A stretch of 64,000 nucleotides of DNA from Nitrosopumilaceae archaeon (GCA_965200155.1 CBDATR010000010.1:224001-288000); one strand, 5' to 3'; shown: positions 4,264 to 48,585, counted from the first letter of the stretch. Notes: generated from the sequence alone by a model not told the origin. Numbers and translations are program-made.

Positions 4264-5658
4264 ATGACAGTAGATATGGTGATAGTAGATTCTCATGTGG
4301 TATTCCCACAGGGCATAGTCGACAAGAATATAGTAATAGACGAGGGAAGAATAGTCGGTCTTACTACAGATGTTCCCGCATGTGACCAAAAGGTGCGGGG
4401 GGATGGTTTGCTGTCAGTACCCGGTCCCATTGATCCCCATGTTCATTATGGCGTATATTCTTCCATAGACAAGGCAGCGGAGACGGAATCACACGCAGCT
4501 GCCATTGGAGGCATTACTACCATGATGCGAATGATGAGGTTGTGGGAACCATTCTCATCAGGACTTCAGCGCCAACTTGATGCCTCGGCCAACACGCACT
4601 ACATAGACTATACTGCACATGCGTCAATCTTCACACACCGGCAAATATCCGAGATGGAATACTGTGCAGAGAGAGGGGTGGCATCCTTCAAGATATACAT
4701 GAATCTGGGCGGCGAAATAGGACATGTCTATATGGATATGCCACCATATTCCACCGAACTTTGTGAAGATAGTGTAGATGTGACCGATGATATAGTGGAG
4801 GAGACTATTAGGGTAGCCGCGAATATGGGTTGCCCCGTATTAATTCATGCAGAGGACTATGAATCATGCGAGTGTGGCATGAAGGAGGCCAAAAAAGAGA
4901 AGCAAGACGGACTGGCTGCGTGGTCCAAGAGCAGGGATCCCCATTATGAGGCAAAGGCAATAAAAAAGGCATGCCGGTTTGGACGCAAATATGGCTGCGT
5001 GCTATACTTTGTGCACATAGGATCCCAAGTTGCACTGGACCAGATCATGGCAGAGCGCCAATTGGGGACAAGCATACGCGTGGAGAGTTGCCCGCACTAC
5101 ATGGTACTCTCCCATGAAAACAGAAACGATCATCTGGCCAAGGTGATGCCACCCATACGTGCCAATTCCGATAATAATTCGGTCTGGAGTGCAGTGAGCC
5201 AGAATCGTATAGATACCATAGGTACAGACCATGTTGCCAACCGACTGGCACGAAAAGTGGGCTCTGATGTCTGGACATCGTTGGCCGGGTTTCCGGGGAT
5301 TGGGACGATGATCCCAATCCTGCTAAGCGAGGGCGTAAATCGTAACAGAATATCCCTAGAGCAGTTCATCAGGTTGACCAGTGTAAATACGGCAAAGATC
5401 TTCTCCATGTATCCAAAAAAAGGATCATTGGAGGCAGGTACGGACGCAGACATATCCATGCTAGACCTGAAACTGGAGCGAACAGTCACAGCAGATATGT
5501 TCGGAGGGTTCTCTGATTATTCTCCGTATGAGGAATTGTGTCTGCGCGGTTGGCCAGTAAGAACTATTGTGCGAGGGTCTGTGATTGCCGAAGATTTTTC
5601 CGTGGTGGGGAAACGGGGTCACGGAAAATTAGTGTCAAGACCGGATACATGTATATGA
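4264..5658 (+). CDS. Cyclic amidohydrolase (dihydroorotase/hydantoinase/allantoinase family)
   Basis: PGPIDPHVH, GGITT, HAED, ESCPHY, GTDH, KKGSLEAGTDADI motifs. Confidence 0.9.
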   Translation: MTVDMVIVDSHVVFPQGIVDKNIVIDEGRIVGLTTDVPACDQKVRGDGLLSVPGPIDPHVHYGVYSSIDKAAETESHAAAIGGITTMMRMMRLWEPFSSGLQRQLDASANTHYIDYTAHASIFTHRQISEMEYCAERGVASFKIYMNLGGEIGHVYMDMPPYSTELCEDSVDVTDDIVEETIRVAANMGCPVLIHAEDYESCECGMKEAKKEKQDGLAAWSKSRDPHYEAKAIKKACRFGRKYGCVLYFVHIGSQVALDQIMAERQLGTSIRVESCPHYMVLSHENRNDHLAKVMPPIRANSDNNSVWSAVSQNRIDTIGTDHVANRLARKVGSDVWTSLAGFPGIGTMIPILLSEGVNRNRISLEQFIRLTSVNTAKIFSMYPKKGSLEAGTDADISMLDLKLERTVTADMFGGFSDYSPYEELCLRGWPVRTIVRGSVIAEDFSVVGKRGHGKLVSRPDTCI

Positions 5659-5715
5659 AATACAAAGACGGTATTGACAGGGGAAACGGGGTCACGGAAA
5701 ATTAGTGTCAAGACC
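5607..5715. repeat. 36-bp direct repeat flanking a 37-bp unique insert (unit 1)
   Basis: GGGGAAACGGGGTCACGGAAAATTAGTGTCAAGACC at 5607-5642 and 5680-5715. Confidence 0.95.
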
Positions 5716-5730
5716 TCTACCCACGAATAG

Positions 5731-5909
5731 GTATGAGTTCACGTGTTTTGATCACATAATATGATAGAATGCATCCCAGTTTTTTAATTATAATTGCATT
5801 CTGGCAGCAACCTCGTTCATTACAGAAAGGCCCTGAGCCCTCCATGTCTGAACACATGTGGACATGCGGCGCATGGCCCTTTCACCACCCTTTATCTGGT
5901 CACTAATTT
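5731..5909 (-). mobile_element. Remnant end of the IS66-family element
   Basis: Matches 42122-~42310 (TIR GTATGAGTTCACGTGTTTTGATCA plus transposase 3' end); truncated by a MITE. Confidence 0.9.
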
Positions 5910-6010
5910 GTATGAGTTCACCTGTGTCTAAATTTACGCATAACTGATGGAACAGGTTGTTCTAGTTAATGTGATTTGTGCATAAGATTCCGGAAGACGT
6001 GAACTCATAC
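5910..6010 (+). mobile_element. MITE-1, 101-bp variant, no TSD
   Basis: TIR GTATGAGTTCAC/GTGAACTCATAC. Confidence 0.95.
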
Positions 6011-6171
6011 ATGGAATTATACTAGTTGCTGTAATTATTTAGATTAGATATTATAATATCGTCATATGTCAGCCAGCGCTATATGATCCTGCATGCCGTC
6101 TGGGACTGTAAATCCCGCATAACGGAGTAAAATACATCCGGGCTATTTGTGGGAGGAACATTACAGAATTA

Positions 6172-6846
6172 TCATGGATACAGTATCTCAAAACAGCCGT
6201 CTTGTTGCATTTTGTACAGTATATCAGGTTTGTTAAATATTCCCACCTCCAATACTCCAGGAAGTTGTCTTATGTCTGCCCCCACTGCTGAAGGATTATC
6301 CACTGTGCCAAAATCACAATCTAGTATTATGTTACCATTCTCGGTAAACATTGGATAACCACGGTCCAGTACGCGTATTTTGGAATGGATATCCACATTT
6401 TCTAAAAGCAAAGATATGGAACTTCTGGCGGCAGGGTGAATTTCTACGGGAATTGGCATACATAATTTATTAACAAACTTTGTTTCATCTGCCATAATTA
6501 TTACCATATCAGACATGCTTGCCAGTATATTCTCTCGAAGCAGGGCACCACCACCGCCTTTTACCATATATCCATCACAGTCTATCTGATCCGCCCCGTC
6601 AAATGTAATATCAATATGAGAGACCATTCCCGGCTCCACAAGATCTATACCCACTTCTTGGGCAATCTCCCTTATTTGCAGTGATGTTGGAACTCCGCGT
6701 ATACGTAAATCAGGACCTGTAACGTTGCCCAGCTCTTTTACCAGAGCGGCCGCAGCCCGACCGCTGCCTAGACCGATCACATGATCTTTGCGTACAAACT
6801 TTAGCGCATCGGTTGTTACATTTTCAATTGATTTTTTATAAGACAT
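6172..6846 (-). CDS. rpiA: Ribose-5-phosphate isomerase A
   Basis: IGLGSG, DGADQ, KGGGGALLRE, TENGN, PGVLEVGIF. Confidence 0.95.
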   Translation of the reverse strand: MSYKKSIENVTTDALKFVRKDHVIGLGSGRAAAALVKELGNVTGPDLRIRGVPTSLQIREIAQEVGIDLVEPGMVSHIDITFDGADQIDCDGYMVKGGGGALLRENILASMSDMVIIMADETKFVNKLCMPIPVEIHPAARSSISLLLENVDIHSKIRVLDRGYPMFTENGNIILDCDFGTVDNPSAVGADIRQLPGVLEVGIFNKPDILYKMQQDGCFEILYP

Positions 6847-7631
6847 TATGATTCTGCACGATCTAATTTAGATATTGTATCTTTAATGTCTTTCATAATT
6901 TTTTCAAAGTTATCATCATCTAAGTCTGCATCAGATAGGGTACCTTCCTCTGTACCAATAGATTCAGATTTTGTTGTTTGTTGCCTGTATTCACCGGTGA
7001 CATCGGCTGTTGGTATTTCTTCTGGGGGTTGACTTGTTGTATTCAATACGCTCTCCTTTGTAGCAGGGGGTGTGGCCGGAGTGGTTGTTTGTGTGGGATC
7101 AACAACAGATGGTGTGGCCGGGGTCGCGGTTTTCTGGGATACAGATTCGGTGGCCGGGGGGGTAGTCGGAGTGGTTGTTTGTGTGGGATCCGTGATTGTG
7201 GTATCTCTTGTAGCCGGTGCCACACTAGTGGTACTGTCAGGCTCTGTAACAACGGGAACTGATTTACCGTTCCCTACAGAATTCACTCGTGTCCTAGAAC
7301 GAGATTTGTCATTTTTTATGGCTGGCTCTGGCGCGGCATTCTCAGCCGGTTGCGCATTTGCATTCCTGTCCCTCGACCGCCATAATTGCGGTCTCTCTCT
7401 AGATGCAGTGCGCCCCTCCAGTTGCGCATCTACATTCTGTAGCCGTTTTCTGTATTCTGCCAGTAATCGTTCGTCATAGGTTTTCGTATCTTTTAGTACG
7501 GATATACTGCTAAGAAGCAGGCGCCGCTCCCCTTGAAGTTGTCTCTTTTTAGAGGACGAACGATAATTTTTAAAAAAAGTAGCAGTTGCTATACCCGCCA
7601 CGGCACATGTGATTAGAATAGCTTCCTGCAT
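6846..7631 (-). CDS. Membrane-anchored Thr/Pro-rich hypothetical protein
   Basis: N-terminal TM, repeated DPTQTTTP(T/A)TPPAT, acidic C-terminus; packed between rpl37e and rpiA. Confidence 0.7.
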   Translation of the reverse strand: MQEAILITCAVAGIATATFFKNYRSSSKKRQLQGERRLLLSSISVLKDTKTYDERLLAEYRKRLQNVDAQLEGRTASRERPQLWRSRDRNANAQPAENAAPEPAIKNDKSRSRTRVNSVGNGKSVPVVTEPDSTTSVAPATRDTTITDPTQTTTPTTPPATESVSQKTATPATPSVVDPTQTTTPATPPATKESVLNTTSQPPEEIPTADVTGEYRQQTTKSESIGTEEGTLSDADLDDDNFEKIMKDIKDTISKLDRAES

Positions 7632-7799
7632 CTATGTGTACCACTTGATCCAAGAATACTTTCTTATCTTAGGATCAGGGAAGCCACAGCTAGCACACCT
7701 ATAGTGTCGCTTATGCAGTGAATTTTTACCGCATCGCCTACAACGTATGTGCGTCTTTTTTCTAGTAAGATTACCCTTGGAGGTTGTGCCTTTGACCAC
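7632..7799 (-). CDS. rpl37e: 50S ribosomal protein L37e
   Basis: Manual translation [55 protein letters not shown]; adjacent to the Sm gene. Confidence 0.95.
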
Positions 7800-7808
7800 G
7801 CTACTCAC

Positions 7809-8051
7809 CTAATTTGATGGTGGAGGAGATATCATGACCACGTTGTCGCCTCTAACTACAATAGTTCCCAAGTCGTTTGTTTTGCCATCAGCCGTGACCT
7901 CTTCAGAACCATTCAGCATCAAGTTCATGTGTTGGTCAAAGCCCAAGAGGCTACCACGGATGGTTTTGTTACCCTTGAGCTTGATCAAGACAACCTTGTT
8001 TATACTCTCATCTAGTACCTTTACTGCCATATCAACAGACATCACGCTCAC
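7809..8051 (-). CDS. Sm-like (Lsm) archaeal protein
   Basis: [16 protein letters not shown]...[12 protein letters not shown]. Confidence 0.95.
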
Positions 8052-8064
8052 TACTCCTGTTCCA

Positions 8065-8781
8065 CTATATTAAAATTTCATTGGGAGCGCCGTTGATTCT
8101 GCTTATGCATTCCTTACTCAAGTTCTCCACTATCTCTTGTAGTAGCGCACGACCATCTTGAGCAGTGGCAGGGCGGGGATCCCCCCAGATACCATTTCCG
8201 GTAGCCTCTGGAAAAGAGCTTGATGCCCGCTGCTTTATGTCACGCAACTCCGAGGGGGACATTCCGTCGGTGATCAGTCCCCTCTGAGCGCGTTTCATGT
8301 GCACCTTGTCCGATATGGTAAGCATCAGAGAAGTTTCCACAAATCCCGCATGATCAAAGCGACTCTTCATAAAGCGCCAGTACGACATGACATGTATAGC
8401 AGGATTTGATTTCTGCAACAAGGCAAATCGCCTTAGAGCATTTCCATTCCCATAATGGCCGTTTATCACGAATATGCTGCAAGCTCCGTTTTGCTGTAAT
8501 GATTCACACATATCACTCAAAAGACTGACTAGTGTAGTCTCTCGTATACTAACCTGAAAGAATGGTGCATGCTCAAATGACACGCCGGTAGTTATGGTTG
8601 GCAAGACCACGAATCTGTTATCCTTGCCTACGCCAGCAGCTACTGCGCCCACTACATCCGAGTCTGTTGAGACAGGTAGGTGCGGGCCATGCTGCTCTAT
8701 TGAGCCTACGGGAATTATAATCGCGACCCCAGACTCTATACTCTGTCTTATATCAGGATCAGTAGCAGTCCAGTTCATCAT
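8065..8781 (-). CDS. Creatininase-family protein
   Basis: [32 protein letters not shown]. Confidence 0.9.
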
Positions 8782-9614
8782 GCATCCTTAACATACACTT
8801 TTCTCCAGCGAACCTCCAGGCGGTTCTCGAGGTGTGTCTTTACAGCCTTGGTGAGTGTAACGGCCTCCAGTTCCTGCCCCTTGGACTTGATCATTGGCAG
8901 TGTATCATCAGGATTCACGGTAAAGGATTCCTGAAATATTATGGGTCCCTGATCTAGATTCTCCGTGACATAATGAGCCGTGACTCCAATTATCTTGGTT
9001 CCCCTTTCAAAGGCCTGTTGGTATGCATAGGCCCCGGGGAACGCAGGTAGTAAGGATGGATGTATATTGATTATACGCCGGGGATATCTCCAGACAAAGT
9101 TGGGCGTCAGTATGCGCATATACCTGGCCAGCACTATCAAGTCTACACCATACTTTGCACAGATAGTCAGTATCTTCTCCTCGGCCTTTTCCTGATTTCT
9201 ATCAGGTACAGTCACAAAGGGAATTCCCATCTTCCGTGCTCGATCCCCCAGTGTCTCCTCTGTGCCTATAATGACATTTATGCTCCCCTGAAGATGACCG
9301 GCGGTAGCCGATTCCAGCAGGGAGTCCAGACAATGGCTCTCCTTTGTAACCAGTATGGCAATCTTTCTCTCTCCTTGGGAGTGATAGATACTCACATCCA
9401 TCTCTTCCTGACTTGCCAGCTTCTGTAGACGCTCGCTGAAATCAGCTATGTTCACATCATGAAAGGAAGCCTCCATATACATGCCAAAGAGTCCCAGCAC
9501 GACGTTCTGGTTTATAGACTCTATGTTACCTCTTTCAGCAAAGACCAGATTGGTGAATGCTGCCACCACACCCTTTCTGTCCTTGCCTACAACGGTAATT
9601 CCTATCACTTGCAC
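8778..9614 (-). CDS. purU: Formyltetrahydrofolate deformylase
   Basis: N-terminal ACT domain; LARYMRIL, INIHPSLLPAF, LDQGPII. Confidence 0.93.
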   Translation of the reverse strand: MQVIGITVVGKDRKGVVAAFTNLVFAERGNIESINQNVVLGLFGMYMEASFHDVNIADFSERLQKLASQEEMDVSIYHSQGERKIAILVTKESHCLDSLLESATAGHLQGSINVIIGTEETLGDRARKMGIPFVTVPDRNQEKAEEKILTICAKYGVDLIVLARYMRILTPNFVWRYPRRIINIHPSLLPAFPGAYAYQQAFERGTKIIGVTAHYVTENLDQGPIIFQESFTVNPDDTLPMIKSKGQELEAVTLTKAVKTHLENRLEVRWRKVYVKDA

Positions 9615-9767
9615 GATATTTCAGCGATAATGACTTATTATTAATCTGAGGTACAACAGGTATTCTTTATGAACTGGCCAGATCAAAGACAATAGCGCGT
9701 TAATAATTGCGCGTATGTTCTCCGCGTATGGAGTAAGGTCTATAATATTTGATCACAAAGTAGTACG

Positions 9768-10259
9768 GTGGCCATTGAACAGGCACTTTTAACATGGACA
9801 CATCTTATTGCTGCATCAATATGGGTAGGCGGCTCCATATTTTTGGGGGTAGTACTCTCACCCATCCTTCGGCAGGTGATCCCAGACGTACCGGAACGGT
9901 TGCACCTAATGATAGTGGTAGGGAAGCGGTTTAACAAGATAGCAATACCATCCCTTGCAGTTCTGGTGGCAACAGGTATCTTTAGCTCCCAGGGCCTGCT
10001 GGCCAACCCGCAACTATTGCCAGCCTCAAGCTATGGCATATACCTTAGCATAAAGATGGTATTGGTTGCCCTGCTGGTTGTAGTATATCTCATACATGTA
10101 AGGCTGATTCGTGGCGATGTCGAGTCCAGAATAATGGCAGGAATGGATCCCAAACAGCTGAAGAGGTTGCGAAAGCAGATAATCATTCTGGGAGAGATTA
10201 CCGTGGCGCTCTCGGTGGCCATTCTCTTCCTGGCGGCGCTTCTTGATGCCGGGGCATAA
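9768..10259 (+). CDS. CopD-like membrane protein
   Basis: HLIAASIWVGG motif, 4 TM segments. Confidence 0.75.
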   Translation: MAIEQALLTWTHLIAASIWVGGSIFLGVVLSPILRQVIPDVPERLHLMIVVGKRFNKIAIPSLAVLVATGIFSSQGLLANPQLLPASSYGIYLSIKMVLVALLVVVYLIHVRLIRGDVESRIMAGMDPKQLKRLRKQIIILGEITVALSVAILFLAALLDAGA

Positions 10260-10564
10260 TCCAAATCAAGGGAAAACGGTACAAGGACTTGTGTGCGGTG
10301 TTTACATCTGAACCACCTAGGCAACACCAAGGCATATCTGACATGGGTTGCTCTCTTCACGGGGTCGCTTTTGTAGCGGCCAAGATATAACCGGCTCCTC
10401 CGGAGATCATCCGCGCTGATGATATTGAACGGTGAAGTTCAGCACAGCAGGACTTTGAATGTCGTGGTTTTTCAGGTCAATAATTTGCCACAATACGGAC
10501 CAGAGAAGTGCTGCAAACTACAAAAATGTATACCTTTTTTAAAAGTGGGTTCGTTCCATATACA

Positions 10565-11065
10565 TTGAATCTCCAGAGCAAGATGACAGTATATGCTGCA
10601 ATAGGCGCAATGCTGGCGCTGATGCTAGGAATTGTTTACTATAGCAGCTTGGATAATCCGTTCTTGGAGCAGGCACAGATTGAGTTACACGATGTTCAGA
10701 TACTAGAGGTGAACGAGATACAGGGCATAGCCACGCTAGAAGTGGCATTCCTGGTGACCAACCCCACAGAACTGACCTTCACCATACCATCCATATCTTA
10801 TGAGCTGTTTGGCGACGGGCAGCCAATGGGTGCCGGTCAGTATTCCACAGAGGATATAGCAATGCCAGGCCGGGCGGCGTTTTATGGTGGCGCATCAATA
10901 CCGCTCAAAAGTACCATGACGGTAAGTCTGTCTAACACAGACCCTACATTATACCAGAATATAGTGAACGAACGGATACAGCAGTATAGCGCCGAGGGAA
11001 TGATTACCGTTGAATCAGCGTGGGCGATTGTGGAGATGGATTTTGAATCATCCATGTCACGATGA
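10565..11065 (+). CDS. Membrane-anchored LEA_2/WHy-like protein
   Basis: N-terminal TM, LVTNP...ISYELF pattern; start uncertain. Confidence 0.65.
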   Translation: MNLQSKMTVYAAIGAMLALMLGIVYYSSLDNPFLEQAQIELHDVQILEVNEIQGIATLEVAFLVTNPTELTFTIPSISYELFGDGQPMGAGQYSTEDIAMPGRAAFYGGASIPLKSTMTVSLSNTDPTLYQNIVNERIQQYSAEGMITVESAWAIVEMDFESSMSR

Positions 11066-11072
11066 TCTTAAA

Positions 11073-11149
11073 TGGTGGGCCGGATGAGATTCGAACTCAC
11101 GACCACCGCCGTGTCGAGGCGGTATCCTAACCAACTAGACGACCGGCCC
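11073..11149 (-). tRNA. tRNA-Val(GAC), CCA encoded
   Basis: Anticodon arm CCGCC-TCGACAC-GGCGG, GAGTTCGAATCTC T-arm. Confidence 0.95.
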
Positions 11150-11180
11150 TTATGGAATAAGGGGGCGATTCATTATTAAC

Positions 11181-11891: not shown

Positions 11892-11915
11892 ATTGTTACA
11901 AGATATGACAGAGAT

Positions 11916-12006
11916 GGGCTTGTGGCGCAGAGTCGTTGACGCGTAGCATGGATAGCGCGGTAGCCTCCTAAGTTACAGGTCGTGGGATCGAAGCCCTCCA
12001 AGCCCG
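11916..12006 (+). tRNA. tRNA-Arg(CCT) with ~16-nt D-loop intron (~11931-11946)
   Basis: GGGCTTG/CAAGCCC acceptor, GTAGC-CTCCTAA-GTTAC anticodon arm; removing AGTCGTTGACGCGTAG gives a 75-nt cloverleaf. Confidence 0.85.
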
Positions 12007-12012
12007 CTTATA

Positions 12013-14909: not shown

Positions 14910-15864
14910 TCAATAGTACGAAAAGTCCGCTTAGGATCCGGCGTACAGTAGCTGACTATTTCATTTCACAAGCCAGATGGTAAAGAGAATAACAGAGGAA
15001 TCAAGACAAAAAGAGGCGTTGCCACAACCAAAATAGCTCAAGACCTGAAACAAGGCACGTACGAAGATTGTGAACCAGAGAACGGGAACGACTCAAGATG
15101 GGCAGGTCATGATACCAATCACCGCCACCCAGATACTAATGGTAACTGAAGCATACAGCAAGGATCCCGCCGGAGTAGTACGTATTGCAAAGAGGCTTAG
15201 ACAGAATTACAATATATTGCGCAGTATATCGCATAATGAAAAAGAACGGTACGGCAGGATCATCACCTGCAAAGTCAGAGTGGGTACGCTACGAGCGTAA
15301 ATATTCCAATGCAATGTGGCACTGGCATGTCATGAAAAGATGAGCGCTTCAAGGGACTGAATCTCATAGATGATGCATCCAGGTGTATAGTCGGGGCGGC
15401 ACTATTTGAGCATGCAACCTCAGAGAACGCCACTCTACTGAGACTGGCAATGAAACGATTCGGCGCCCCTGCATCTCGGATAACGGCGCGTGTTTCGTAG
15501 GACAATAAAGTGGCAAAAAGAACTGGAAACTCACACTATTCGAGGAAGAACTGCTGGATCAAGACATCATACTAATCAATTCCAGGCCATACCACCCGCA
15601 GACAAATGGCAAACTGGAGCGCTTCCATGGAATGATTGAGGACGAGGGGACTCTTATTTAAGAGTCCAACGAGATATGACATCATGACAGTCTCCGGGAT
15701 TATGTGGACTACTACAATGAGAGAAGGTTGCACTTCTCACTGGATAGATAACGGCGAGACACCACTCCAGGAATAAAAAGGCGACCCAGACAATTAGGGC
15801 AAATGATGTAAAATGGATGGAGCGAGATACCAATGACTAGCGGACCGACTTTTCATACATTACA
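14910..15864 (+). mobile_element. IS481-like element with frameshifted transposase (copy 1)
   Basis: IDDASRCIVG and RPYHPQTNGKLERFH integrase-core motifs in shifted frames; closely matches 53841-54868. Confidence 0.85.
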
Positions 15865-18773: not shown

Positions 18774-19103
18774 ATGGACCGTCTGGATGCCATATTCAAG
18801 ATGCAGAAAGAGTTGGCCGACATGATGAAGCCTGATCGCTATCCCGCAGACAGGGAGAGGCGTGTCTCGGCATTATGCACTGCCATGATTCACGAGGCCG
18901 CGGAGCTCCAGCGTCTTACCAACTGGAAATGGTGGAAGAGTCCTGTGCCATTTGATGAGTCAAAGGCCAGAGAGGAGTTGGCCGACATACTACACTTTGT
19001 AATACAAGCTCACATAGAGATGGGCATGACTCCCGAGGACATATTGAAGGAGTATGCTAGCAAGAACCACATTAATCGGGAGCGTCAGAATAGCGGCTAC
19101 TGA
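18774..19103 (+). CDS. All-alpha (dimeric) dUTPase-family protein
   Basis: EAAEL...WKWWK...EELADILHF...KNHINRERQNSGY. Confidence 0.85.
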   Translation: MDRLDAIFKMQKELADMMKPDRYPADRERRVSALCTAMIHEAAELQRLTNWKWWKSPVPFDESKAREELADILHFVIQAHIEMGMTPEDILKEYASKNHINRERQNSGY

Positions 19104-20188
19104 TCTTGCATAACGCGTGCAATGTACGAGATATCATCGGGGGTCACACCAGGATGGACCGGTAGCGACAACACAGTCTGTGCCGCCCTCTCAGTCTCTG
19201 GAAGTGTAAGTGATGATCGGTACAGTGGCATCAGGTGTATTGGTGTCTTGTAATATATGGCCGCGCCTATATCACATCGATACAGCCTTTCATGCATACT
19301 GTCCCTGTTGTTTAGTGATATGGTATACAGACCCCAATTGGGAGCCTGGCCGTCACCCGGATTAGGTAGTACAAGACCGGTCTCGCGCAATAGTTCAGAG
19401 AGTAACGATGCATTACGGCGACGTACATCAAGAAAATATGGAAGCCTGTCTATCTGTATGGCTCCGATGGCCGCGGATATCTCCGGCATGCGCAAGTTTA
19501 TCCCGAACATGTTAAACTCGTTCCCGGTATTTCCATGATTGCGTATGGCCAGCAGATTATCTCGCAGCTTCTCATTGCCGGTCACCACCACTCCCCCCTC
19601 TCCGGCGGTGGCAACCTTTCCGGGATACATGCTGTAGCAACCCATCTCAGAGAGTGTCCCGGTATGCCTGCCGTTTATGGTGGAACCCAGCGACTGTGCC
19701 GCGTCCTCTATAATTGGGATATCCGGGGCTTCCTGTCGTATGGCCGGAATATCTGCCACATGTCCATATAGGTGCACCGGTATGATGGCAGCAGTATTTC
19801 CAGTAATGGCAGACCTCACACAGGCGGGATTCATGGTATAGTTGTCCCGCACATCTACAAAGACCGGAGCGGCGCCCACAGAGTATACGGCATTAGCGGT
19901 GGCCACATACGAGAAGGATGGTACAAGAACCTCGTCACCGCGTTTTACGCCAAGCGATATCAGGGCAGCCTGAAGCGCCGCGGTTCCGGAACTTACCGAT
20001 ATAGCATAACGGGCCCCGGTAAATTCGCATATCAGACGCTCCAGTCTCTGCACCGCCGGACCCCCCTCCCTGGCGGGGGATGTGAGTACGCCAGACTCTA
20101 TGACTTGTACTGCGGCCTGCCGTTCCCTCTCACCAAGCATAGGCTCGTTGATCTTTATGAACTTCCTGTCCACACACGTTATTCTCAT
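19097..20188 (-). CDS. DegT/DnrJ/EryC1/StrS aminotransferase
   Basis: SSGTAAL, PVHLYG, IEDAAQS, GEGG, LSLPVHP. Confidence 0.92.
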   Translation of the reverse strand: MRITCVDRKFIKINEPMLGERERQAAVQVIESGVLTSPAREGGPAVQRLERLICEFTGARYAISVSSGTAALQAALISLGVKRGDEVLVPSFSYVATANAVYSVGAAPVFVDVRDNYTMNPACVRSAITGNTAAIIPVHLYGHVADIPAIRQEAPDIPIIEDAAQSLGSTINGRHTGTLSEMGCYSMYPGKVATAGEGGVVVTGNEKLRDNLLAIRNHGNTGNEFNMFGINLRMPEISAAIGAIQIDRLPYFLDVRRRNASLLSELLRETGLVLPNPGDGQAPNWGLYTISLNNRDSMHERLYRCDIGAAIYYKTPIHLMPLYRSSLTLPETERAAQTVLSLPVHPGVTPDDISYIARVMQDQ

Positions 20189-20788: not shown

Positions 20789-20790
20789 TT

Positions 20791-40000: not shown

Positions 40001-40226
40001 CAGGTTAAGTCTTTTATGCTCCCAATATTAAGTTAAAGTGTATACCTAAAGTAACCTCCAAGTCTCACAGATTGAGTTACACATTCACGTCATAAAATAT
40101 ACACTAGGCTCTGTAACATTAAGCATTGAGTCTGTTCCCAAGACATGTCGAATGGTCCCCTCACATGTGGTACCGCCTAGCCGTACAAGTAGCCTGCTGA
40201 CTGGGGGGAACAAGACCAAAGAAAAC

Positions 40227-40318
40227 GTATGAGTTCACCTGTGTCTAAATTTACGCATAACTGATCGCGACAGTTAATGTGATTTGTACATAAGATTACA
40301 GAAGACGTGAACTCATAC
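40227..40318 (+). mobile_element. MITE-1, TSD AAGAAAAC
   Basis: TIRs and 8-bp duplication. Confidence 0.97.
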
Positions 40319-40380
40319 AAGAAAACATTATTGTGACTTTGGGCACCTAAACGACTACATGGTACGAATTCTCAGGTTAC

Positions 40381-41907: not shown

Positions 41908-42121
41908 CTGATTGCAATCAAAATATGATAAAATATGCAAAATCCATGCTGTTAATTCTGAGATGAGTGATATACAACCCCTCACAGGCGCTATTAGTAA
42001 CATGATCAGCCAGATAGCTCCAAAATGGCACATTCATAACTAATCTTATAAACAAAATATGTATAAATTCACGTATTTGCTAATCCCGCGTTACTATCTG
42101 CCCGTGCGTAAATGTGGGTTC

Positions 42122-43815
42122 GTATGAGTTCACGTGTTTTGATCACATAATAAGATAGAATGCATCCCAGTTTTTTAATTATAACTGCATTCTGGCAGCA
42201 ACCTCGTTCATTACAGAAAGGCCCTGAGCCCTCCATGTCTGAACACATGATACAAATGTAGACATGCGGCGCATTGCCCTTTCGCCACCCTTTATCTGAC
42301 CACTGATCTTGCGGAATACCACTGCGTATCGCAAAGCCTGCTCCGCTGGATTGTTGGTGGGCTCCACACTGTCATATTCTAAGAATACGAACATGCATGG
42401 TATGGCCTTATTCAATCCTTTTACCTTCTTTTGTAGTTCAGTATCATCAACATCACAGTACTGATGCAGAATGGATTCTGCTCCTGTCTCAAATGAGTGT
42501 CGTAATTGCGCGGACGGCCCGCAGTGATTCAGGGATTCCCGTGCGCTCCGGAACAATCCTTTCAGGTCATTGTCAAGTTTGATCCGGGCGTCCTGAGCAC
42601 CGGGATCAATATAGAATCCTGCATGTAATGCCTGGGTATCGCGCAATAAATGCGCCCAACACAACTGGTGCTTCCCACCGTCATCAAACCGGCGGTACAC
42701 AACGTACCTGTCCGTTACTATCGCTCCCTGGTAACCGTTCAGGTATTTGTTCACTACATTTGAACTCCTACTTTTGTCATATATGGACATCATCCACTCT
42801 TCGGCTCGCATCCCCCATACCCAGCCACGCCTACCCGCCAGTGATATACCAGTTTCGTCCACATGAATGCTGGGTGATTTTATTATATTTTCATGAATTG
42901 TTTCCATAAATGATTCACATGCATCGGCGGCCCTGGCAATTATGTTGTTTACTGCACCCACAGATATATTCAGGCCGAAGAGATCCTTCGAAATTACAGG
43001 TATGCGTTTTATTGGAATCTTTTCCGCACGCAATGCAGTGATGGCACCGCATAATTGAACCCCAAAACTACCACTCTTTGGGACGCCCGCTGCTGGGGCC
43101 AGTTGTTTTTTGCCGCACTTGCATGCAGCCATTTCTATCATATGGTGGGCCTCCTCTATTCTGGCTGGTATTAATTCCGTTATGTGTCGTTGTTTCCAAC
43201 CAATTTTTGTCATTATATTGCCGCACTCACATAGTGGAGTATGCTCAAAGGTGTGATGCACTACTCTGCCGGGGTTGTGGTAACGGGAAACCCCCTTGTG
43301 TCCCTTTTGAGCGCCAGCCTTTTTGGCTGATTTCGTACTGGCTTCTGTCTGTTGCTTATTATCTCCCTGTTTTCGCTTCTGCTCCTCCTGTTTTCGCTTC
43401 TTGTACTGGAGGGATTGAAGGGATGGTGGCGAGTGAGCATTCTCATAATATTTAAGTCGCGTTGTGAGTACCGCAATTTTCCTGTCTTTTTCTACTAATT
43501 CCTCTTTTAATTCACTTACATAATTTCTAATAATTTGGAAATCTTGTATATGATTTCGTATTTCTTTTATGGTGTGTGACATATATGCTTCCAATACTCT
43601 CACACGTTCCTTGTAATGTGCAAGATCTTTCTTGTAATCCTCAATATCTTTCTTGATAGACGCAAGGGTATCCTGAAGAAGTTTATTTTCCAGTTCCAAT
43701 TCCTTATAGGACCGGCGTCTTCTCATTAGATTCTTATTGCAAATTTGGTATTTAAGTAAAATATTGCCATACCAATCTATATCTTAGTGAATGATCAAAA
43801 CACGTGAACTCATAC
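42122..43815 (-). mobile_element. Single-ORF IS66-family element, intact, TSD GTGGGTTC
   Basis: 24-bp perfect TIR GTATGAGTTCACGTGTTTTGATCA; 8-bp duplication. Confidence 0.97.
42179..43726 (-). CDS. IS66-family transposase
   Basis: HSPPS, GAQKGHKG, Zn finger, HVDETG, VTDRY, QLCWAHLLRD, PTNNPAEQALR. Confidence 0.95.
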   Translation of the reverse strand: MRRRRSYKELELENKLLQDTLASIKKDIEDYKKDLAHYKERVRVLEAYMSHTIKEIRNHIQDFQIIRNYVSELKEELVEKDRKIAVLTTRLKYYENAHSPPSLQSLQYKKRKQEEQKRKQGDNKQQTEASTKSAKKAGAQKGHKGVSRYHNPGRVVHHTFEHTPLCECGNIMTKIGWKQRHITELIPARIEEAHHMIEMAACKCGKKQLAPAAGVPKSGSFGVQLCGAITALRAEKIPIKRIPVISKDLFGLNISVGAVNNIIARAADACESFMETIHENIIKSPSIHVDETGISLAGRRGWVWGMRAEEWMMSIYDKSRSSNVVNKYLNGYQGAIVTDRYVVYRRFDDGGKHQLCWAHLLRDTQALHAGFYIDPGAQDARIKLDNDLKGLFRSARESLNHCGPSAQLRHSFETGAESILHQYCDVDDTELQKKVKGLNKAIPCMFVFLEYDSVEPTNNPAEQALRYAVVFRKISGQIKGGERAMRRMSTFVSCVQTWRAQGLSVMNEVAARMQL

Positions 43816-43850
43816 GTGGGTTCAGGTGAATTTGTGCCAAAAAAAAAAAC

Positions 43851-43942
43851 GTATGAGTTCACCTGTGTCTAAATTTACGCATAACTGATCGCGACAGTTA
43901 ATGTGATTTGTGCATAAGATTCCAGAAGACGTGAACTCATAC
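43851..43942 (+). mobile_element. MITE-1, TSD AAAAAAAC
   Basis: TIRs and 8-bp duplication. Confidence 0.97.
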
Positions 43943-44034
43943 AAAAAAACATCCATCATACGAGCATTTTTTAGTGGAACATGCGTTGTGCATTATAGTT
44001 GCTTCATACAGGTTTTAACTTGCAACAGAGAACT

Positions 44035-44700
44035 ATGTTTTATGGCATAGTATGTACATTGGCGTGCACCGCTATTCTGGGTGAGGCTCATGCGCACACG
44101 CTGGACTCAATGGAGGGGTATCGTCTAGAGATAGGATGGATGAATAGTCCACCTTATTCCGGAGAGGTAAATGCCATAGTCTTACACATAAGCCCAATGA
44201 TGCCAGGGCTGGAACTGGAAGAGCAGCCATTTAGAGACGGCGTAGCAGGTCTACGAGACACCCTAAAGATGCAGCTGGTCTCTGCAACTTCCAGTCTCAC
44301 ATTGAGACTGGATCCTGACCCCGACATACCCGGCAAATATTATGTGTTTACCAAAATAAACAGGCCAGGCTTCTATCAAGCCAATCTTATAGGCACCATA
44401 AATGACGCCAACATTAACATCAGTATGCACCCGCCTCAAGTACGCAACGCCGAGCATATCACGTTTCCTCAGGAATATGGTATGATATACGATGTAGTTG
44501 CAACACAGGATATGCTACAGGAGAGATTGGACAACATTACACTTTCACACCAAGCGGAGTTTGAAGAGATTCGCCAAGAAATAGACATACAGGAACAACC
44601 TGTAGAACCAACGCTGCCATACGTAATTGCAGGTATTGGGGTAGTTATGGGAGCAGTGGCCATGGGCATGGCTGCCAAGACATACAGAAGGCTAGGATAG
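44035..44700 (+). CDS. Hypothetical surface protein (signal peptide, C-terminal TM)
   Basis: AHAH cleavage site, YRLEIGWMNSPP, C-terminal anchor. Confidence 0.75.
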   Translation: MFYGIVCTLACTAILGEAHAHTLDSMEGYRLEIGWMNSPPYSGEVNAIVLHISPMMPGLELEEQPFRDGVAGLRDTLKMQLVSATSSLTLRLDPDPDIPGKYYVFTKINRPGFYQANLIGTINDANINISMHPPQVRNAEHITFPQEYGMIYDVVATQDMLQERLDNITLSHQAEFEEIRQEIDIQEQPVEPTLPYVIAGIGVVMGAVAMGMAAKTYRRLG

Positions 44701-44789
44701 ATCTAGCATCATCATAAGAGTGAGCGCGCGACCAAATGTAATACCGGCAGTGCCATACAGAAGGCTAGGATAGATCTAGCACCATCATA
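44681..44789. repeat. 36-bp direct repeat (1 mismatch) flanking a 37-bp unique insert (unit 2)
   Basis: CATACAGAAGGCTAGGATAGATCTAGCAYCATCATA at 44681-44716 and 44754-44789. Confidence 0.95.
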
Positions 44790-45664
44790 TCTCTAGCCGC
44801 GCTGACCGATCCGTGTATGCGGCGGGCTTCCTCCAGTTGTACCGATTCATCTACATACCTGGCAGAGAAGTGTGTCAGTACTAGATTGACAACGCATGCA
44901 TTCTTGGCCAGAGTTGCAGCTTCATGTGCCGTAGTGTGTCGCGTTTCTTCAGCGCGCCTGGCCATATTTTGAGCAAAAGTTGAGTCAAATATCAAGTAGT
45001 TACAACATGTGAAAAAGTTCTCTAGCTGTTTGGTAGGTCTTGTGTCTCCCGAATATCCAATTTTAATACCCGGTCTGCGCTTTCCCAATACCTGAGCAGG
45101 AGTAATAGTGCGTCCGGATACATCCACACTTTTTCCTCGTTGGAGTTGTGACCATAACCGTCCTTTAGGCACACCCAAGGCTTTTGCCTGATCTGGATAG
45201 AACTGTCCGGGCTTCTCCTTCTCCTCAAGTACATACGAGTATGCAATTATGCCATGATCCGCACTACAGGCCCTTACCGTATACTGATCAGTCTGGCAAA
45301 CAACGCCGTCAGCAATATCACACACACTAAGATCAAAGGACGGCCTAAAGTCCAGCATCTCCATATTGAGCTCAATGAACCTCTTGGTTCCCCGGGGACC
45401 GTAAATTGAGAGCGGCCTCTGGCGCTTCTGCAACGACATTGTTTGAAGCAGGCCCAGAGCCCCGAGACAGTGATCACCATGCAAGTGTGTTATGTATATG
45501 CTCATCTTCTTGTTCCAACCCAGACCTGCCTTGCCATATGCCATCTGCGCTCCCTCACCGGCATCAAACATCAGTATCTCGCCTCCTCTATTCACGCATA
45601 TGCACGGATTATTCCTCTTTTTTGTAGGAAGTGATGCGGAAGTGCCCAAAAATATTATCTGCAT
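44765..45664 (-). CDS. rnz: Ribonuclease Z
   Basis: FLGTSAS, FDAGEGAQ, THLHGDH, YSGDT, LTHFSARY. Confidence 0.95.
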   Translation of the reverse strand: MQIIFLGTSASLPTKKRNNPCICVNRGGEILMFDAGEGAQMAYGKAGLGWNKKMSIYITHLHGDHCLGALGLLQTMSLQKRQRPLSIYGPRGTKRFIELNMEMLDFRPSFDLSVCDIADGVVCQTDQYTVRACSADHGIIAYSYVLEEKEKPGQFYPDQAKALGVPKGRLWSQLQRGKSVDVSGRTITPAQVLGKRRPGIKIGYSGDTRPTKQLENFFTCCNYLIFDSTFAQNMARRAEETRHTTAHEAATLAKNACVVNLVLTHFSARYVDESVQLEEARRIHGSVSAARDMMVLDLS

Positions 45665-45872
45665 TTAGACACACTATTCACGCGCGCCTTTAAACTCACC
45701 GTCACTAGGCTGGAAAAGCATCATGAATACATGTAGAGTCATCCACATCTATTCACGTAAAGACAGAACTGTTGCCGCTTCATGGCAGAATTAATGATTG
45801 TGCATAAATTTGAATATAGGCGAACTCATGCTAAATAACCCCCGTAATTTATCGTACGCGAATGCCCCAGAT

Positions 45873-46114
45873 GTAACCGTTTAGGTCAAGTTAAGTATGA
45901 GTTCACGTCTTCCGGAATCTTATGCACAAATCACATTAACTGTCGCGATCAGTTATGCGTAAATTTAGACACAGGTGAACTCATACCAAGTTAAAGATCA
46001 ACACCTAGACGGTAAATTAGTGGGCATGTGGGAGGCGCCATAATAGAAAAAGCAAGAACATACATGTTCGCCGTGTATTTTGGACAGTTGTCCGGAGGTG
46101 ACCTAAACGGTTAC
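45873..46114 (+). mobile_element. MITE-2 with nested MITE-1
   Basis: Perfect 16-bp TIR GTAACCGTTTAGGTCA/TGACCTAAACGGTTAC; flanks GCCCCAGAT/GCTCCAGAT. Confidence 0.92.
45895..45986 (-). mobile_element. MITE-1, TSD CAAGTTAA
   Basis: TIRs and 8-bp duplication. Confidence 0.97.
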
Positions 46115-46143
46115 GCTCCAGATTACCGGTACAGAATATCGTA

Positions 46144-46980
46144 CTATTTTCTTGGCATGGTAAAAGATACACCCAGTACGCGCCGACGTACCAATCCGGT
46201 TACAGCCCACACAATGTCAAGTATACCGTGGACGGAATTTCCCAGCATTCTTACCAGTATGCCGGAATTATCATGCATAATACTGGAGCCCCACGCAATG
46301 TCATTGGACACCAAGTCGCGTGTGTCCAAGTACAGGGGGGACACGTGTGTCATGGGGGTCAGTATGTACACAGACCCGACAACGCAATACTCGCCCATCA
46401 TCCCGTAAGTGTTGGCATCGCGTTTCTTGGGTTCTAATAGGGCCACATCCCTGAATCGATGGTGCCCGTTCTGGCTTGTTGCAGTTGTTTGAAGCATACA
46501 CTTCTCGTACAGGAAAGACTCGTTCATGGCAAGACGGCCTGATGACAGGATCTCCGCATACACCAAGGTGGCGGTGTCATGTACCTTTAGATCGGTCTTT
46601 TGTACATATCTAGAATGTTCGTAGGGGATTATTTGATCCGGAATAAACTCCAAGTATGAATTACTATCTAGTTCAACCTGTGCGGATTGACATGCATCCC
46701 TGTCAGGGGATCCGTATATTCGGGTGGCTCCCTGGGTAGTGAGATGGACCATTGTACCTCTGCCTAATTTGACATTAATGCTATGAGAGTCCCCGCCCAG
46801 TATACCCCCGGAGCTGCTCATCATGTACACAAATGCCATATCAGGCACCGCCTCCTCGTAGTACAGTGCCCGCTGTACATGAAAGGGGGCGCGGGCATAT
46901 TGCCGTGTTATTGTTGTTCTGGTATTGGTTTTGTCAAAGGCCAAGCACATACGGCCCCTGAGTCCAGTAGTATCTGCCAT
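46144..46980 (-). CDS. ureD: Urease accessory protein UreD
   Basis: PFHVQRALY, SSGGILGGD, LTTQGATRIY, LEFIPDQIIPY. Confidence 0.92.
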   Translation of the reverse strand: MADTTGLRGRMCLAFDKTNTRTTITRQYARAPFHVQRALYYEEAVPDMAFVYMMSSSGGILGGDSHSINVKLGRGTMVHLTTQGATRIYGSPDRDACQSAQVELDSNSYLEFIPDQIIPYEHSRYVQKTDLKVHDTATLVYAEILSSGRLAMNESFLYEKCMLQTTATSQNGHHRFRDVALLEPKKRDANTYGMMGEYCVVGSVYILTPMTHVSPLYLDTRDLVSNDIAWGSSIMHDNSGILVRMLGNSVHGILDIVWAVTGLVRRRVLGVSFTMPRK

Positions 46981-47050
46981 TTCCCATACTTCCTGTTCAC
47001 TTTATTAAACTTCTATAACGGCTACTACAAGTCTCTGCATATACATTTGT

Positions 47051-48585
47051 TATAGCGGTCACCATAAGTCTTTGAGAACATGGCACCTCGTTCCTGGATG
47101 GTACATGGCTTTGGCTTGTCACCATTATTCCCGCCCTGACGCCTCCGGTTGGGCGGGTAGCGGTTCCCTGCCCCCCGGACGACACGCTCTGCCGCCCCAT
47201 ACAGAGAAACCGGTTACTAAACGCCGCGTTGATATCGGCGTGAAATTCCTGGTTACATATTGAATGTGTCCCTAGTTGATCGTGATTTGTCGTCAACGTG
47301 TCCACACACGTCATAGGTCTGGCTCGTTGGGCGGGTAAACCGCTCCCTCGTGTATTTCGCTGGCACAGCCACCAATTCAATCCCCAGCGCCTCGCACTTT
47401 TGCTCCACTCTCCGGCGGAACACGCCTACCCGGTTCTCGCGCATGGAGCGGTTCATCATTCTTTTGTGGTTCCCACCATGACTGGTCATTGATTTCGGTG
47501 ATAAATCCTCTAGTACCACCTTGTCCACACCTGATGTCACAGCATTTATCCATGCGAATATTATCCAAATATTGCCTGACCGCTAGTACTACCTTGTCCA
47601 CACCTGATGTCACAGCATTGACTATTCTATTCATGGTGTCATTCGTGATATTATTCGCCTGCTGCCTCAACTGGTTGATTTTCTTTTCGATCTTTCGCTT
47701 TCTGCGCTTACCCTTTCTGGATTTAATACTCTGTAGGTAACGGATCTCCCGCAATATGGAACGATGCCTCATGTCGTGAATCATTGTTCCACCATTCGTG
47801 TCGGCTGTTACAACCAGGTGTTTCCTGCCGACATCCACGCCACGAATGACACCGGTTGTCACATGCCTTTCGGGAACGATTCCAACATTGATATGAATCT
47901 CGAATTTGCGTTCTCCTGGAAGTCCTCTTGTCTGTTCTCTCGACTAGTTTGAATGAGCGCATGTTCCAGGAATGAACGATTGGCTTTGTCGTTCTCGCGA
48001 CACCAAAACCCGACAAGTATAGTTTGCGAGAACCGCGCCTTATCGGCGGACTCACACATGAAAGTATGATTCTTTTATTGTCACGCCGGTGTGGTATGTA
48101 ATCAGAATGATCCTCGTACGCGCGCCTACACGCGATAGGCGCCTGTAATATGGCGCCCCGGCCATAGTTAACTGGTAACTTGTGCACCAATTCAATATCA
48201 CGACGCCACTTTGTTAATTCCAAGAATAGACCATTTGTATAACCGTTCTAGAACGTGGTAGCTGATTCATGTAGAGTGGATCGCCCTTCTTAAGATTGTA
48301 TGGTGACTTGGCGGACTCGTTCCTATTCTTGACCTTGGCCGGATCATGCTTCAATTCTAGAGTGGTTCCGGGCATATCATAACCGCCAAGACTGATCTCG
48401 TATACGGCTCTCTATTATAGACACAATCGGATGTATGACCAAATATCTTGGTACGCCGGGAGGATTCCCTATCCGTTTTCAACGGTATTCCGGGTTATGT
48501 CATCCATTATCTGGTGATTCTACTCTAGTAGTGGTTCTATAAAGTACGGTTCTATACCCGGCAGAGACTTATGATGGGCGTTATA
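47051..48585 (-). mobile_element. tnpB: TIR-bounded element carrying a frameshifted tnpB (copy 1)
   Basis: RuvC motifs GVDVG, VVLEDL, SQT..VCGH, HADINAA in shifted frames; TIRs TATAGCGGTCACCATAAGTCTTTG / CAGAGACTTATGATGGGCGTTATA. Confidence 0.88.
47511..47619. repeat. 36-bp direct repeat (1 mismatch) flanking a 37-bp unique insert (unit 3)
   Basis: TAGTACYACCTTGTCCACACCTGATGTCACAGCATT at 47511-47546 and 47584-47619 (one-base boundary ambiguity). Confidence 0.95.

Follow-up and report, generated by a model that had tools for sequence, protein, structure and literature searches.

What looks like off-target CRISPR spacer integration across the genome of a sponge-associated Nitrosopumilaceae archaeon

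The genome of a sponge-associated, ammonia-oxidising Nitrosopumilaceae archaeon holds what appear to be the natural traces of a CRISPR integrase acting off target, outside the array. Across the whole genome we curated 71 stray units in which host DNA is directly duplicated on either side of a spacer-sized insert, amounting to ~63 independent inserts at ~50 target sequences (a script counted 65 distinct inserts, of which 63 remained after removal of two native repeat variants). Judging from the sequence comparisons below, these units very probably (about 0.9) arose when the genome's own type I-G Cas4-Cas1, together with Cas2, integrated spacers off target (non-canonically); that this very enzyme was the catalyst is what we infer. 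Off-target integration as a kind of event is already known from E. coli experiments, and the units are therefore no new category of phenomenon. The natural scale and the self-derived inserts are new.

Three of the units lie in the stretch of 64,000 nucleotides analysed here as the window (GCA_965200155.1 CBDATR010000010.1:224001-288000). An earlier note on this window had described them and proposed that an integrase of the Cas1 type, relaxed in its specificity, had written single spacers over the chromosome. The units proved to be real and the integrase reading is supported, every check that the note had suggested having turned out in favour of it. All three were found where the note had placed them, each with a duplication of 36-37 bp, an insert of 36-37 bp and a period of 73. 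The three repeats are mutually unrelated and so are the three inserts. The note was also correct that the window contains neither cas1 nor an array; both are on contig C9 of the same genome. The parts of the three units are as follows.

5607..5642, unstranded: unit 1 copy 1, 36 bp, coding for the last conserved residues of an amidohydrolase-family gene (ORF 4264-5658)
5643..5679, unstranded: unit 1 insert, 37 nt, spacer-like, adding 4 codons and a stop
5680..5715, unstranded: unit 1 copy 2, 36/36 identical to copy 1
44681..44716, unstranded: unit 2 copy 1, containing the stop codon of the + strand ORF 43999-44700
44717..44753, unstranded: unit 2 insert, 37 nt
44754..44789, unstranded: unit 2 copy 2, 35/36 identical, containing the stop codon of the - strand ORF 44765-45664
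47510..47546, unstranded: unit 3 copy 1, 37 bp, within a broken TnpB-like (OrfB_IS605 / Cas12f1-like TNB) gene
47547..47582, unstranded: unit 3 insert, 36 nt
47583..47619, unstranded: unit 3 copy 2, 36/37 identical

At unit 1, the in-frame reading of copy 2 runs on into the displaced former C-terminal tail of the amidohydrolase. In 9/9 genus relatives the orthologue covers query residues 1-459/460 (2-459 for one of them), and homology therefore stops where copy 1 meets the insert. At unit 2, where the - strand ORF is metallo-beta-lactamase/RNase Z-like, the two convergent ORFs would share 9 nt if 73 bp were taken out; the orthologous pair in the relative G006 overlaps by 6 nt. When the empty site of unit 3 is reconstructed, the - strand has an open frame of 205 codons, and with the unit present the TnpB-like gene is cut into fragments 47377-47862 and 47253-47540. 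Logan contigs span unit 2 in runs X1, X5 and X7 and unit 3 in runs X5 and X8, each with 0 differences, although one run may be the sample behind the genome assembly. Such independent contigs, which answer the note's call for spanning reads at units 2 and 3, show that the units are not an assembly artefact. Among the joints listed in contigs from other runs there was no 73-bp skip, such as an empty allele at the same locus would give.

The same geometry recurs throughout the genome. A 36-nt sliding window with at least 31 matches was used to scan spacings of 40-140 (101 values), and 64 of the 117 clean isolated direct repeats fell at a spacing of 71-75, as against ~0.5 for each other spacing value; under a stricter filter the figure was 55/70. 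This sharp peak is far beyond chance, and the earlier note's expectation of many such units genome-wide is borne out by the curated set. Spacing is 71-75 in 70/71 curated units and the duplication measures 36-37 bp in 55/71 (36 bp in 23, 37 bp in 32). Several sites carry two or three inserts, forming mini-arrays.

This geometry is that of the resident CRISPR system. The genome, a metagenome-type assembly with many repeats (87.6% complete, 51 contigs), contains one cas1, a Cas4-Cas1 fusion adjoining cas2 on contig C9. Beside it, at C9:71011-92087, lies an array of 289 repeats of 36 nt with spacers of 35-39 nt in 280/288 cases (mode 37), which gives an array period of 71-75 (280/288), equal to that of the stray units, as the note's integrase model required of the ruler. 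The difference between the unit and array period distributions was not significant (Mann-Whitney P=0.054). Past the array are cas3 and genes of the GSU0053 and GSU0054 families (Pfam matches), and the combination of a Cas4-Cas1 fusion, Cas2, Cas3 and both GSU families identifies the system as type I-G (formerly I-U). The large subunit was not found; a 319-aa ORF beside cas3 has no match in Pfam. Cas4-Cas1 matches the solved Geobacter sulfurreducens Cas4/Cas1 (7mi4) with E=1e-147, and the residues aligned to Geobacter D87, K102 and E380 (numbering of PMC6547450) are conserved in an alignment read by eye. The adaptation module is thus present and intact and, by its sequence, apparently functional. 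The 10 kb upstream of the array contain five units, against 0.27 expected (P=1e-5). Two of these stand between the cas1 stop codon and cas2, where they supply 148 nt of a 149-nt gap that is 10 nt in G006, and the end of cas1 itself serves as a duplicated target.

The duplicated targets are ~50 unrelated sequences of ordinary host DNA. Their mean best match to the canonical repeat is 13.9/36, compared with 13.2/36 for random DNA (P=0.004); this absence of one conserved repeat rules out a canonical CRISPR array. A likeness barely above background also counts against our reading, since such targets are not an obvious choice for a repeat-recognising integrase. A weak symmetric half-site motif is nevertheless common to them, in keeping with the note's suggestion of building a motif from the target sites. 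T occupies position 3 in 38 of 74 half-sites (P=5e-6), and G or C stands at position 11 in 61 of them (P=4e-10) and at position 12 in 54; the smallest P in 300 random-site sets was 1.5e-4. The canonical repeat has T3 T4 C5 plus C/G at positions 11-12 at both ends. The specificity is therefore loose, as the note had proposed, but it is not absent, as seen from this motif, from recurrent hot-spot sequences and from the clustering by the array.

One such hot spot, target HS2, is present at 80 single (unoccupied) loci and 5 occupied ones, and the five insertions are at the same site with different inserts, their measured starts agreeing within 1 bp. Two unoccupied copies are in the window.

15432..15467 (C10:239432), - strand: empty-site paralogue of HS2, diverged (4 mismatches), unoccupied
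54364..54399 (C10:278364), - strand: exact copy of HS2, unoccupied

Together with the layouts in related species, these paralogous copies provide the empty alleles that the note had looked for: cross-species layouts fit a 73-bp insertion at window units 1 and 2, and the layout of the cas1-cas2 gap also fits.

Many inserts come from the cell's own genome, which lay beyond what the note could see. An exact core match elsewhere in the genome was found for 29/71 units, and at least 22 inserts have independent full-length exact self sources, against 0/288 array spacers (Fisher P=1e-18), so that self-derived inserts make up a third or more of the total. The sources are ordinary single-copy genes, distant on the chromosome. 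A 5' TTN in one orientation accompanies 10/22 sources (null mean 4.4, P=0.0065), and TTN is the PAM known for the subtype (PMC6547450). The note's proposal to trace the inserts and seek a shared PAM was thus fruitful, although PAM selection is partial at best. In addition, array spacer S58 has 27 nt in common with the insert at C25:4797-4831, both on the same strand and shifted by 10 nt relative to each other. Two protospacers of stray units elsewhere lie in the window.

1673..1711, - strand: protospacer of the stray unit at C24:237593, 39-nt maximal exact match
19523..19562, + strand: protospacer of the stray unit at C34:37402, exact copy, within ORF 19097-20188

The latter has TTC directly 5' if the spacer start is 19524. 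No source was identified for about half of the inserts, including all three in the window: those of units 1 and 2 had no match in the genome, viral contigs or metagenome contigs, and that of unit 3 none in the genome or viral contigs.

To account for these observations, we propose that the integrase would take up a prespacer of ~36 bp and direct two staggered strand-transfer attacks, 36-37 bp apart, at a non-CRISPR target. Gap repair would then double the target on either side of the insert, in the way that the leader-proximal repeat is doubled in a genuine array. The choice of site would be loose, set by the complex's own ruler and the weak motif near each cut, with the vicinity of the array favoured. 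Because the duplicated host sequence is no CRISPR repeat, the insert is presumably not made into crRNA, and self copies would therefore cause no autoimmunity there; in the true array they would be purged. Units would persist at tolerated places alone, namely gene ends, intergenic DNA and mobile elements. Selection is the probable cause of the distribution of sites, and the depletion of units from gene interiors fits the note's idea that only harmless events survive.

Another integrase, either a second Cas1-family protein or an unrelated one, could have produced the same 36/37 geometry by chance from unassembled DNA or a since-lost mobile element. The incomplete, fragmented assembly leaves room for such a gene, and the targets hardly resemble the resident repeat. 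This origin is nonetheless very unlikely, given that one Cas1 was found, that the unit geometry equals that of the resident array, by which the units cluster, that an array spacer and one insert go back to a common source and that the TTN enrichment suits the resident subtype. Errors of repair or replication (template switching, or filler-DNA insertion with local duplication) would involve no CRISPR role at all, and the many inserts that copy the cell's own DNA do resemble templated insertions. Such errors are a highly improbable source, however, of a fixed 36-37 bp duplication with a 35-39 bp insert in ~63 independent events, and neither a spacing peak as sharp as that of the array nor the PAM enrichment, the source shared with an array spacer or the clustering next to the leader is accounted for by them.

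It is extremely unlikely that the units are remnants of many degenerate arrays, or solitary repeat units carried in by mobile elements. Half of the events do lie in multi-copy sequence (33/65, against 20% of random sites) and one unit was multiplied along with an IS66-family element, but the 'repeats' are ordinary host sequence (gene ends conserved in relatives, and the end of cas1), and there are ~50 unrelated repeat sequences and 80 unoccupied copies of one target. Chance or assembly error might be suspected in a repeat-rich metagenome-type assembly of 51 contigs; we regard it as refuted by the concentration of 64/117 isolated repeats in 5 of 101 spacing values and by the independent contigs of three further runs that span units 2 and 3 without a difference. 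Insertion sequences and casposons also duplicate their target directly on integration, yet mobile elements are conserved, with defined ends and short duplications. The inserts here are unlike them: spacer-sized, without ends or ORF, all different apart from spread copies and, where traced, drawn from ordinary single-copy genes, which rules out an insertion sequence or MITE with target-site duplication.

Off-target integration by the genome's own Cas4-Cas1 and Cas2 has partial parallels in known systems. Nivala, Shipman and Church reportedly observed in 2018 that a repeat-length target is duplicated at off-target sites. The available accounts of their study (Nivala, Shipman & Church 2018 Nat Microbiol, via bioRxiv 10.1101/148544, PMC7054753, PMC6698737) describe non-canonical integration and 'neo-CRISPR' loci with the E. 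coli type I-E system, as rare events under overproduced Cas1-Cas2 and supplied oligonucleotides, and a citing passage mentions circumstantial evidence in two other species too. As far as these accounts go, Cas1-Cas2 in both cases puts a spacer outside the array, at sites that can seed new arrays. In contrast to E. coli, the genome here is that of an archaeon in nature, carries a type I-G Cas4-Cas1 module and has ~63 such events fixed in it; no fewer than a third are self-derived and the targets are barely repeat-like. A 2020 CRISPR J paper, as summarised in PMC13142298, proposed that arrays far from cas genes may in part stem from off-target acquisition; unlike the arrays of that summary, nearly every unit here has its own host-sequence 'repeat' and a single insert. 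According to the description in PMC6698737, off-target sites of Pyrococcus furiosus Cas1-Cas2 in vitro share sequence features with the repeat and show the elements recognised, which parallels the half-site motif here, although plasmid DNA was used in vitro whereas our events are fixed in a chromosome. Ectopic spacer acquisition inside arrays of Streptococcus thermophilus, as outlined in PMC7999890, is alike in that the integrase misses the leader-proximal repeat, but internal copies of the true repeat are used there and unrelated host DNA here.

A related module is that of G. sulfurreducens, whose Cas4/1 is homologous to the resident protein. For this type I-U/I-G Cas4/1-Cas2, the available text of PMC6547450 gives a predominant spacer of 36 bp and the PAM TTN, with ~50% TTN among unique new spacers. 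A CRISPR substrate from Methanosarcina barkeri has likewise served in work on type I-G Cas4/1 (PMC10504553), and in the accessible portions of both papers spacer-side integration is less exact than leader-side (PMC6547450, PMC10504553). Those portions describe integration at the leader-repeat junction, and no mention of off-target chromosomal sites was found in them.

In the relative G006, a scan of 1.2 Mb gave 4 plausible units, a density about a tenth of that in this genome (P=8e-11). Its Cas4-Cas1 is orthologous (66% identity) and its repeat is 36 nt; the presence of a similar module is therefore not enough to account for the scale. One further reading, to which we give even odds as a whole, is that the Cas4-Cas1/Cas2 of this symbiont lineage may be naturally promiscuous, an endogenous insertional mutagen making 72-75 bp insertions chromosome-wide under the guidance of the ruler and a weak symmetric half-site code alone. 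It would record the cell's own DNA, with the source strongly biased to one 540-kb contig, break genes, including transposase genes, and repeatedly seed mini-arrays. If this is true, the units would be an unselected natural read-out of the capture and target range of the integrase.

Off-target integration has so far been seen mainly under artificial overexpression. Here, ~63 fixed natural events from one identifiable module are enough to read which targets the integrase prefers by nature, namely a ruler of 36-37 bp combined with a weak motif that occupies positions 3-5 and 11-12 counted from each cut. They also reveal capture without an autoimmunity filter, with at least a third of the inserts self-derived and none in the true array, and a PAM at about half of the sources. 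Stray units would escape standard CRISPR finders, and the phenomenon may therefore be under-counted elsewhere. The data show directly how new arrays can begin from ordinary sequence. For an archaeon that lives with a host, insertional damage can be one cost of CRISPR adaptation.

The earlier note had described three stray units in the window, each a direct duplication of host sequence around a spacer-like insert, and all three were present where it placed them, each with a period of 73 bp. No further direct repeats of this form were found in the window.

Features of the window (window positions)
1673-1711: chromosomal source of a stray insert, exact copy
5607-5642 and 5680-5715: unit 1, identical copies around a 37-nt insert
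5727-5750: 24-nt IS/MITE end, one copy of which starts 11 bp past unit 1
19523-19562: chromosomal source of a stray insert, exact copy
42179-43726 (- strand): IS66-family transposase gene
44681-44716 and 44754-44789: unit 2, copies with one mismatch around a 37-nt insert
46144-46980 (- strand): UreD urease accessory gene, between units 2 and 3
47510-47546 and 47583-47619: unit 3, copies with one mismatch around a 36-nt insert

At unit 1, the alignment with orthologues from 9/9 genus relatives stops where copy 1 ends (residue 459 or 460 of 464), and through the insert four residues take the place of a short, non-conserved C-terminal tail. The target of unit 2 takes in both stop codons of a convergent gene pair; with 73 bp removed the two genes overlap by 9 nt, and the overlap of the orthologous pair in the same-genus relative G006 is 6 nt. 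At unit 3 a TnpB-like gene is broken into fragments with OrfB_IS605 and TNB domains, and the rebuilt empty site holds a 205-codon frame. Contigs from sequencing runs X1, X5 and X7 spanned unit 2 without differences, as did contigs of X5 and X8 for unit 3. No polymorphic empty allele, seen as a 73-bp skip, was present among the joints listed for contigs of X1, X5, X7 and X8, and contigs drop rare variants. No contig crossed the unit at L038 19632-19741, because its insert stems from a high-copy element. The inserts of units 1-3 had no match in the assembly or in viral contigs, and the two tested against metagenome contigs (units 1 and 2) had none there. The 24-nt IS/MITE end beside unit 1 occurs 176 times genome-wide at no more than 3 mismatches, 3 of them within the window.

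We scanned the whole assembly (2.38 Mb, 51 contigs; the window is C10:224001-288000) for direct repeats. In a seed-based scan, spacings peaked sharply at 71-75 and at harmonics of this, a signal made up of one large array and many isolated pairs. In a seed-free scan (36-nt window, at least 31 matches, spacings 40-140), 64/117 clean isolated events outside the array lay at spacing 71-75, and a stricter scan (at least 34/36 matches and unlike flanks) placed 55/70 there; the genome-wide peak near 73 for which the earlier note had proposed a test is sharp. Curation kept 71 units from 132 rows (duplication 32-41, spacing 70-78, minus 10 tandem or low-GC-context rows), with spacings of 72 (n = 33), 73 (n = 18), 74 (n = 8), 75 (n = 6), 71 (n = 5) and 78 (n = 1). 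The duplication was 36 bp in 23 units and 37 bp in 32, both lengths being real, on our reading of the matches, where the source sequence sets the insert boundaries. Both copies were identical in 49/71 units.

By script, the 71 units reduce to 65 different inserts, located at 50 different target sequences. Three of the 71, at C10:210130, C13:47756 and C24:500844, were rejected as variants, with a 6-nt indel, of a native 66-nt coding repeat in an IS66-family gene; dropping native-repeat variants leaves ~63 inserts, a figure obtained by reading the rows and not by script. Statistics on ORF location, array clustering, the C10 share of targets and multi-copy sites were computed with 65 events. Several sites carry two or three inserts and are thus the start of an array. 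At C24:352098-352298 two stray units lie on overlapping targets offset by 21 bp, meaning two separate integrations within one 60-bp stretch. No stray unit was found in 29 low-GC contigs (GC below 43%, 176 kb; P = 0.009). These contigs, among them C2-C4, C6, C8, C11 and C14-C18, carry repeats of microsatellite-like and long tandem type (CA runs, for instance), and may derive from the host or another non-archaeal source and have been binned with the archaeal genome. The organism itself is an archaeon with archaeal amoA, and the runs holding the window either are labelled sponge metagenome or have coded organism names.

The large array, at C9:71011-92087, has 289 copies of a 36-nt repeat and 288 spacers, mostly of 35 (n = 16), 36 (n = 85), 37 (n = 101), 38 (n = 63) or 39 nt (n = 15). 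A 549-aa Cas4-Cas1 fusion and Cas2 are encoded upstream, and Cas3 with GSU0054- and GSU0053-family proteins on the other side, a gene set of type I-G (formerly I-U). The cas1/cas2 pair and array of compatible size sought for such an integrase are thus resident in this genome, and the assembly has no Cas1 match other than the fusion. Against the solved Cas4/Cas1 of Geobacter sulfurreducens the fusion scores E = 1e-147, and the residues aligned to Geobacter D87, K102 and E380 are conserved (alignment read by eye; numbering as in PMC6547450). A related-loci search with Cas4-Cas1 yielded distant homologues alone, all from unrelated MAGs.

Several lines of evidence tie the stray units to this system. 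The period distributions of units and array did not differ significantly (P = 0.054). The core of 29/71 units has an exact match elsewhere in the genome; after removal of same-unit copies, 22 independent inserts reproduce a distant chromosomal sequence exactly and over their full length, and several more match the chromosome at 94-97%. Of the array spacers, 0/288 matched the chromosome (whole assembly, including the low-GC contigs), a marked difference from the units (Fisher P = 1e-18). Since no array spacer matches the assembly, the PAM is not independently derivable, and TTN was therefore taken from PMC6547450, which describes it as the PAM of the homologous Geobacter module, present in ~50% of unique new spacers, with a predominant spacer of 36 bp. 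A 5' TTN in one orientation accompanied 10/22 self sources against 4.4 expected (P = 0.0065). Spacer S58 of the array shares 27 nt, same-strand and with a 10-nt offset, with the insert at C25:4797-4831, and therefore both sample one foreign sequence. Exact self sources were concentrated on C10, with 14/22 on this contig, which accounts for 22.7% of assembled sequence (P = 5e-5); their positions range between 28 kb and 479 kb, and stray targets had no such bias (16/65). The source bias might reflect a replicon that is separate or of higher copy number, a break-prone domain, or priming.

Units also cluster at the array, with 5 within 10 kb upstream against 0.27 expected (P = 1e-5). Two of the five lie between the cas1 stop codon and cas2 and duplicate the last cas1 codons; they make up 148/149 nt of the cas1-cas2 gap, which is 10 nt in G006. 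Short open frames that resemble just the last 35-47 residues of Cas4-Cas1, apart from the full gene, were seen in three relatives; they might be remnants of cas1 ends or duplications there.

Cas4-Cas1 C-terminal-like short frames in relatives
G006:C1:991190-991327
G001:C13:138776-138907
G004:C2:28049-28156

Empty sites were found as paralogues. HS2, a recurrent target, is a 36-bp sequence inside a repeat element of ~85 copies; it is single at 80 loci and duplicated around five different inserts at 5 loci, always at one position, the measured starts differing by no more than 1 bp. Other multi-copy sequences behave alike, for example HS5 (57 single and 2 occupied loci). The empty alleles that had been sought exist as such unoccupied paralogous copies, and the layouts in related species fit at units 1 and 2. 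One unit in an IS66-family element has spread to at least 5 loci, presumably through transposition of the element; the single-copy source of its insert is at C24:21292. In the N-terminal part of the IS66-family gene in the window is a native 37-bp coding repeat, which other copies carry at a spacing of 66 bp. This repeat, HS1, is the most used stray target, with about five different inserts once native variants are dropped (by row reading), and, when the sequences are read by eye, its end is similar to the CRISPR repeat at the 3' end. The repeat load of the genome is very heavy, ~20% of random 96-nt samples having at least 5 copies.

How targets are chosen was addressed from the duplicated sequences. 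Their identity to the canonical repeat was slightly raised (13.9 versus 13.2 of 36, P = 0.004), an excess too small for repeat look-alike sites to be the main targeting rule, and a half-site motif was favoured instead. Reading inward from both boundaries of 37 sites with 36- or 37-bp duplications gave 74 half-sites. T stands at position 3 in 38/74 (P = 5e-6), position 4 is G or T, position 5 is C or A, and G or C occupies positions 11 (61/74, P = 4e-10) and 12 (54/74, P = 6e-6); across 300 random-site controls the P value fell no lower than 1.5e-4 at any position. Each end of the canonical repeat reads T3, T4 and C5, with C/G at positions 11-12. The target motif that the earlier note had suggested building is weak and symmetric, and we therefore propose that weak, two-fold symmetric recognition near each cut would act together with an intrinsic ruler.

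The rebuilt empty site lacked an ORF of at least 120 codons in 36/65 events (29% of random positions), and 13/65 fell in ORF interiors (52.5% of random positions; chi-square on ORF location with 63-event counts, P = 2e-7). Sequences with at least 5 copies received 33/65 events against 20% of random sites (P = 3e-8). This distribution fits survival of harmless insertions only, as had been argued, although integration itself may prefer non-ORF and multi-copy DNA. The depletion from ORF interiors agrees with the argument; that selection shapes the distribution is the part that we infer. As to the events themselves, the proposal of stray spacer integration by a Cas1-type integrase of relaxed specificity is supported by the geometry, self origin, PAM, shared source and clustering of the units. 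The resident enzyme probably catalysed the insertions, and the stray units would yield no crRNA.

Nivala and colleagues reportedly described in 2018 that Cas1-Cas2 can integrate off target into the chromosome of E. coli and that such events can seed new arrays, with circumstantial evidence said to come from two other species. Off-target acquisition has been listed among the ways in which arrays apart from cas genes arise (summary of Shmakov 2020 in PMC13142298), and off-target sites of P. furiosus Cas1-Cas2 in vitro are described as sharing features with the repeat (PMC6698737). Our search of the literature, main texts only, found no published natural genome with dozens of stray events or self-derived stray inserts, and no published stray units in sponge archaea. 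The kind of event was already known; what is new is its natural scale, that inserts are self-derived, and that the target code can be read.

The relative G006 has an orthologous Cas4-Cas1 fusion (66% identity) and a 36-nt repeat with a period of 71-74. Orthologous fusions are also present in G001, G005, G008 and G035. Its large genes hold very many 75-nt (25-codon) coding tandem repeats, which swamp naive spacing scans at 75 and were filtered out before counting.

75-nt coding tandem repeats in G006
G006:C1 ~696000-742000
G006:C1 ~875000-894000
G006:C1 ~1123000-1132000

We scanned 1.2 of its 2.74 Mb (60/137 pieces of 20 kb) and, after reading the list by eye, retained 4 plausible units, against ~34 expected at the density of the present genome (P = 8e-11). 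Stray integration is therefore common to the lineage, and extreme in this genome.
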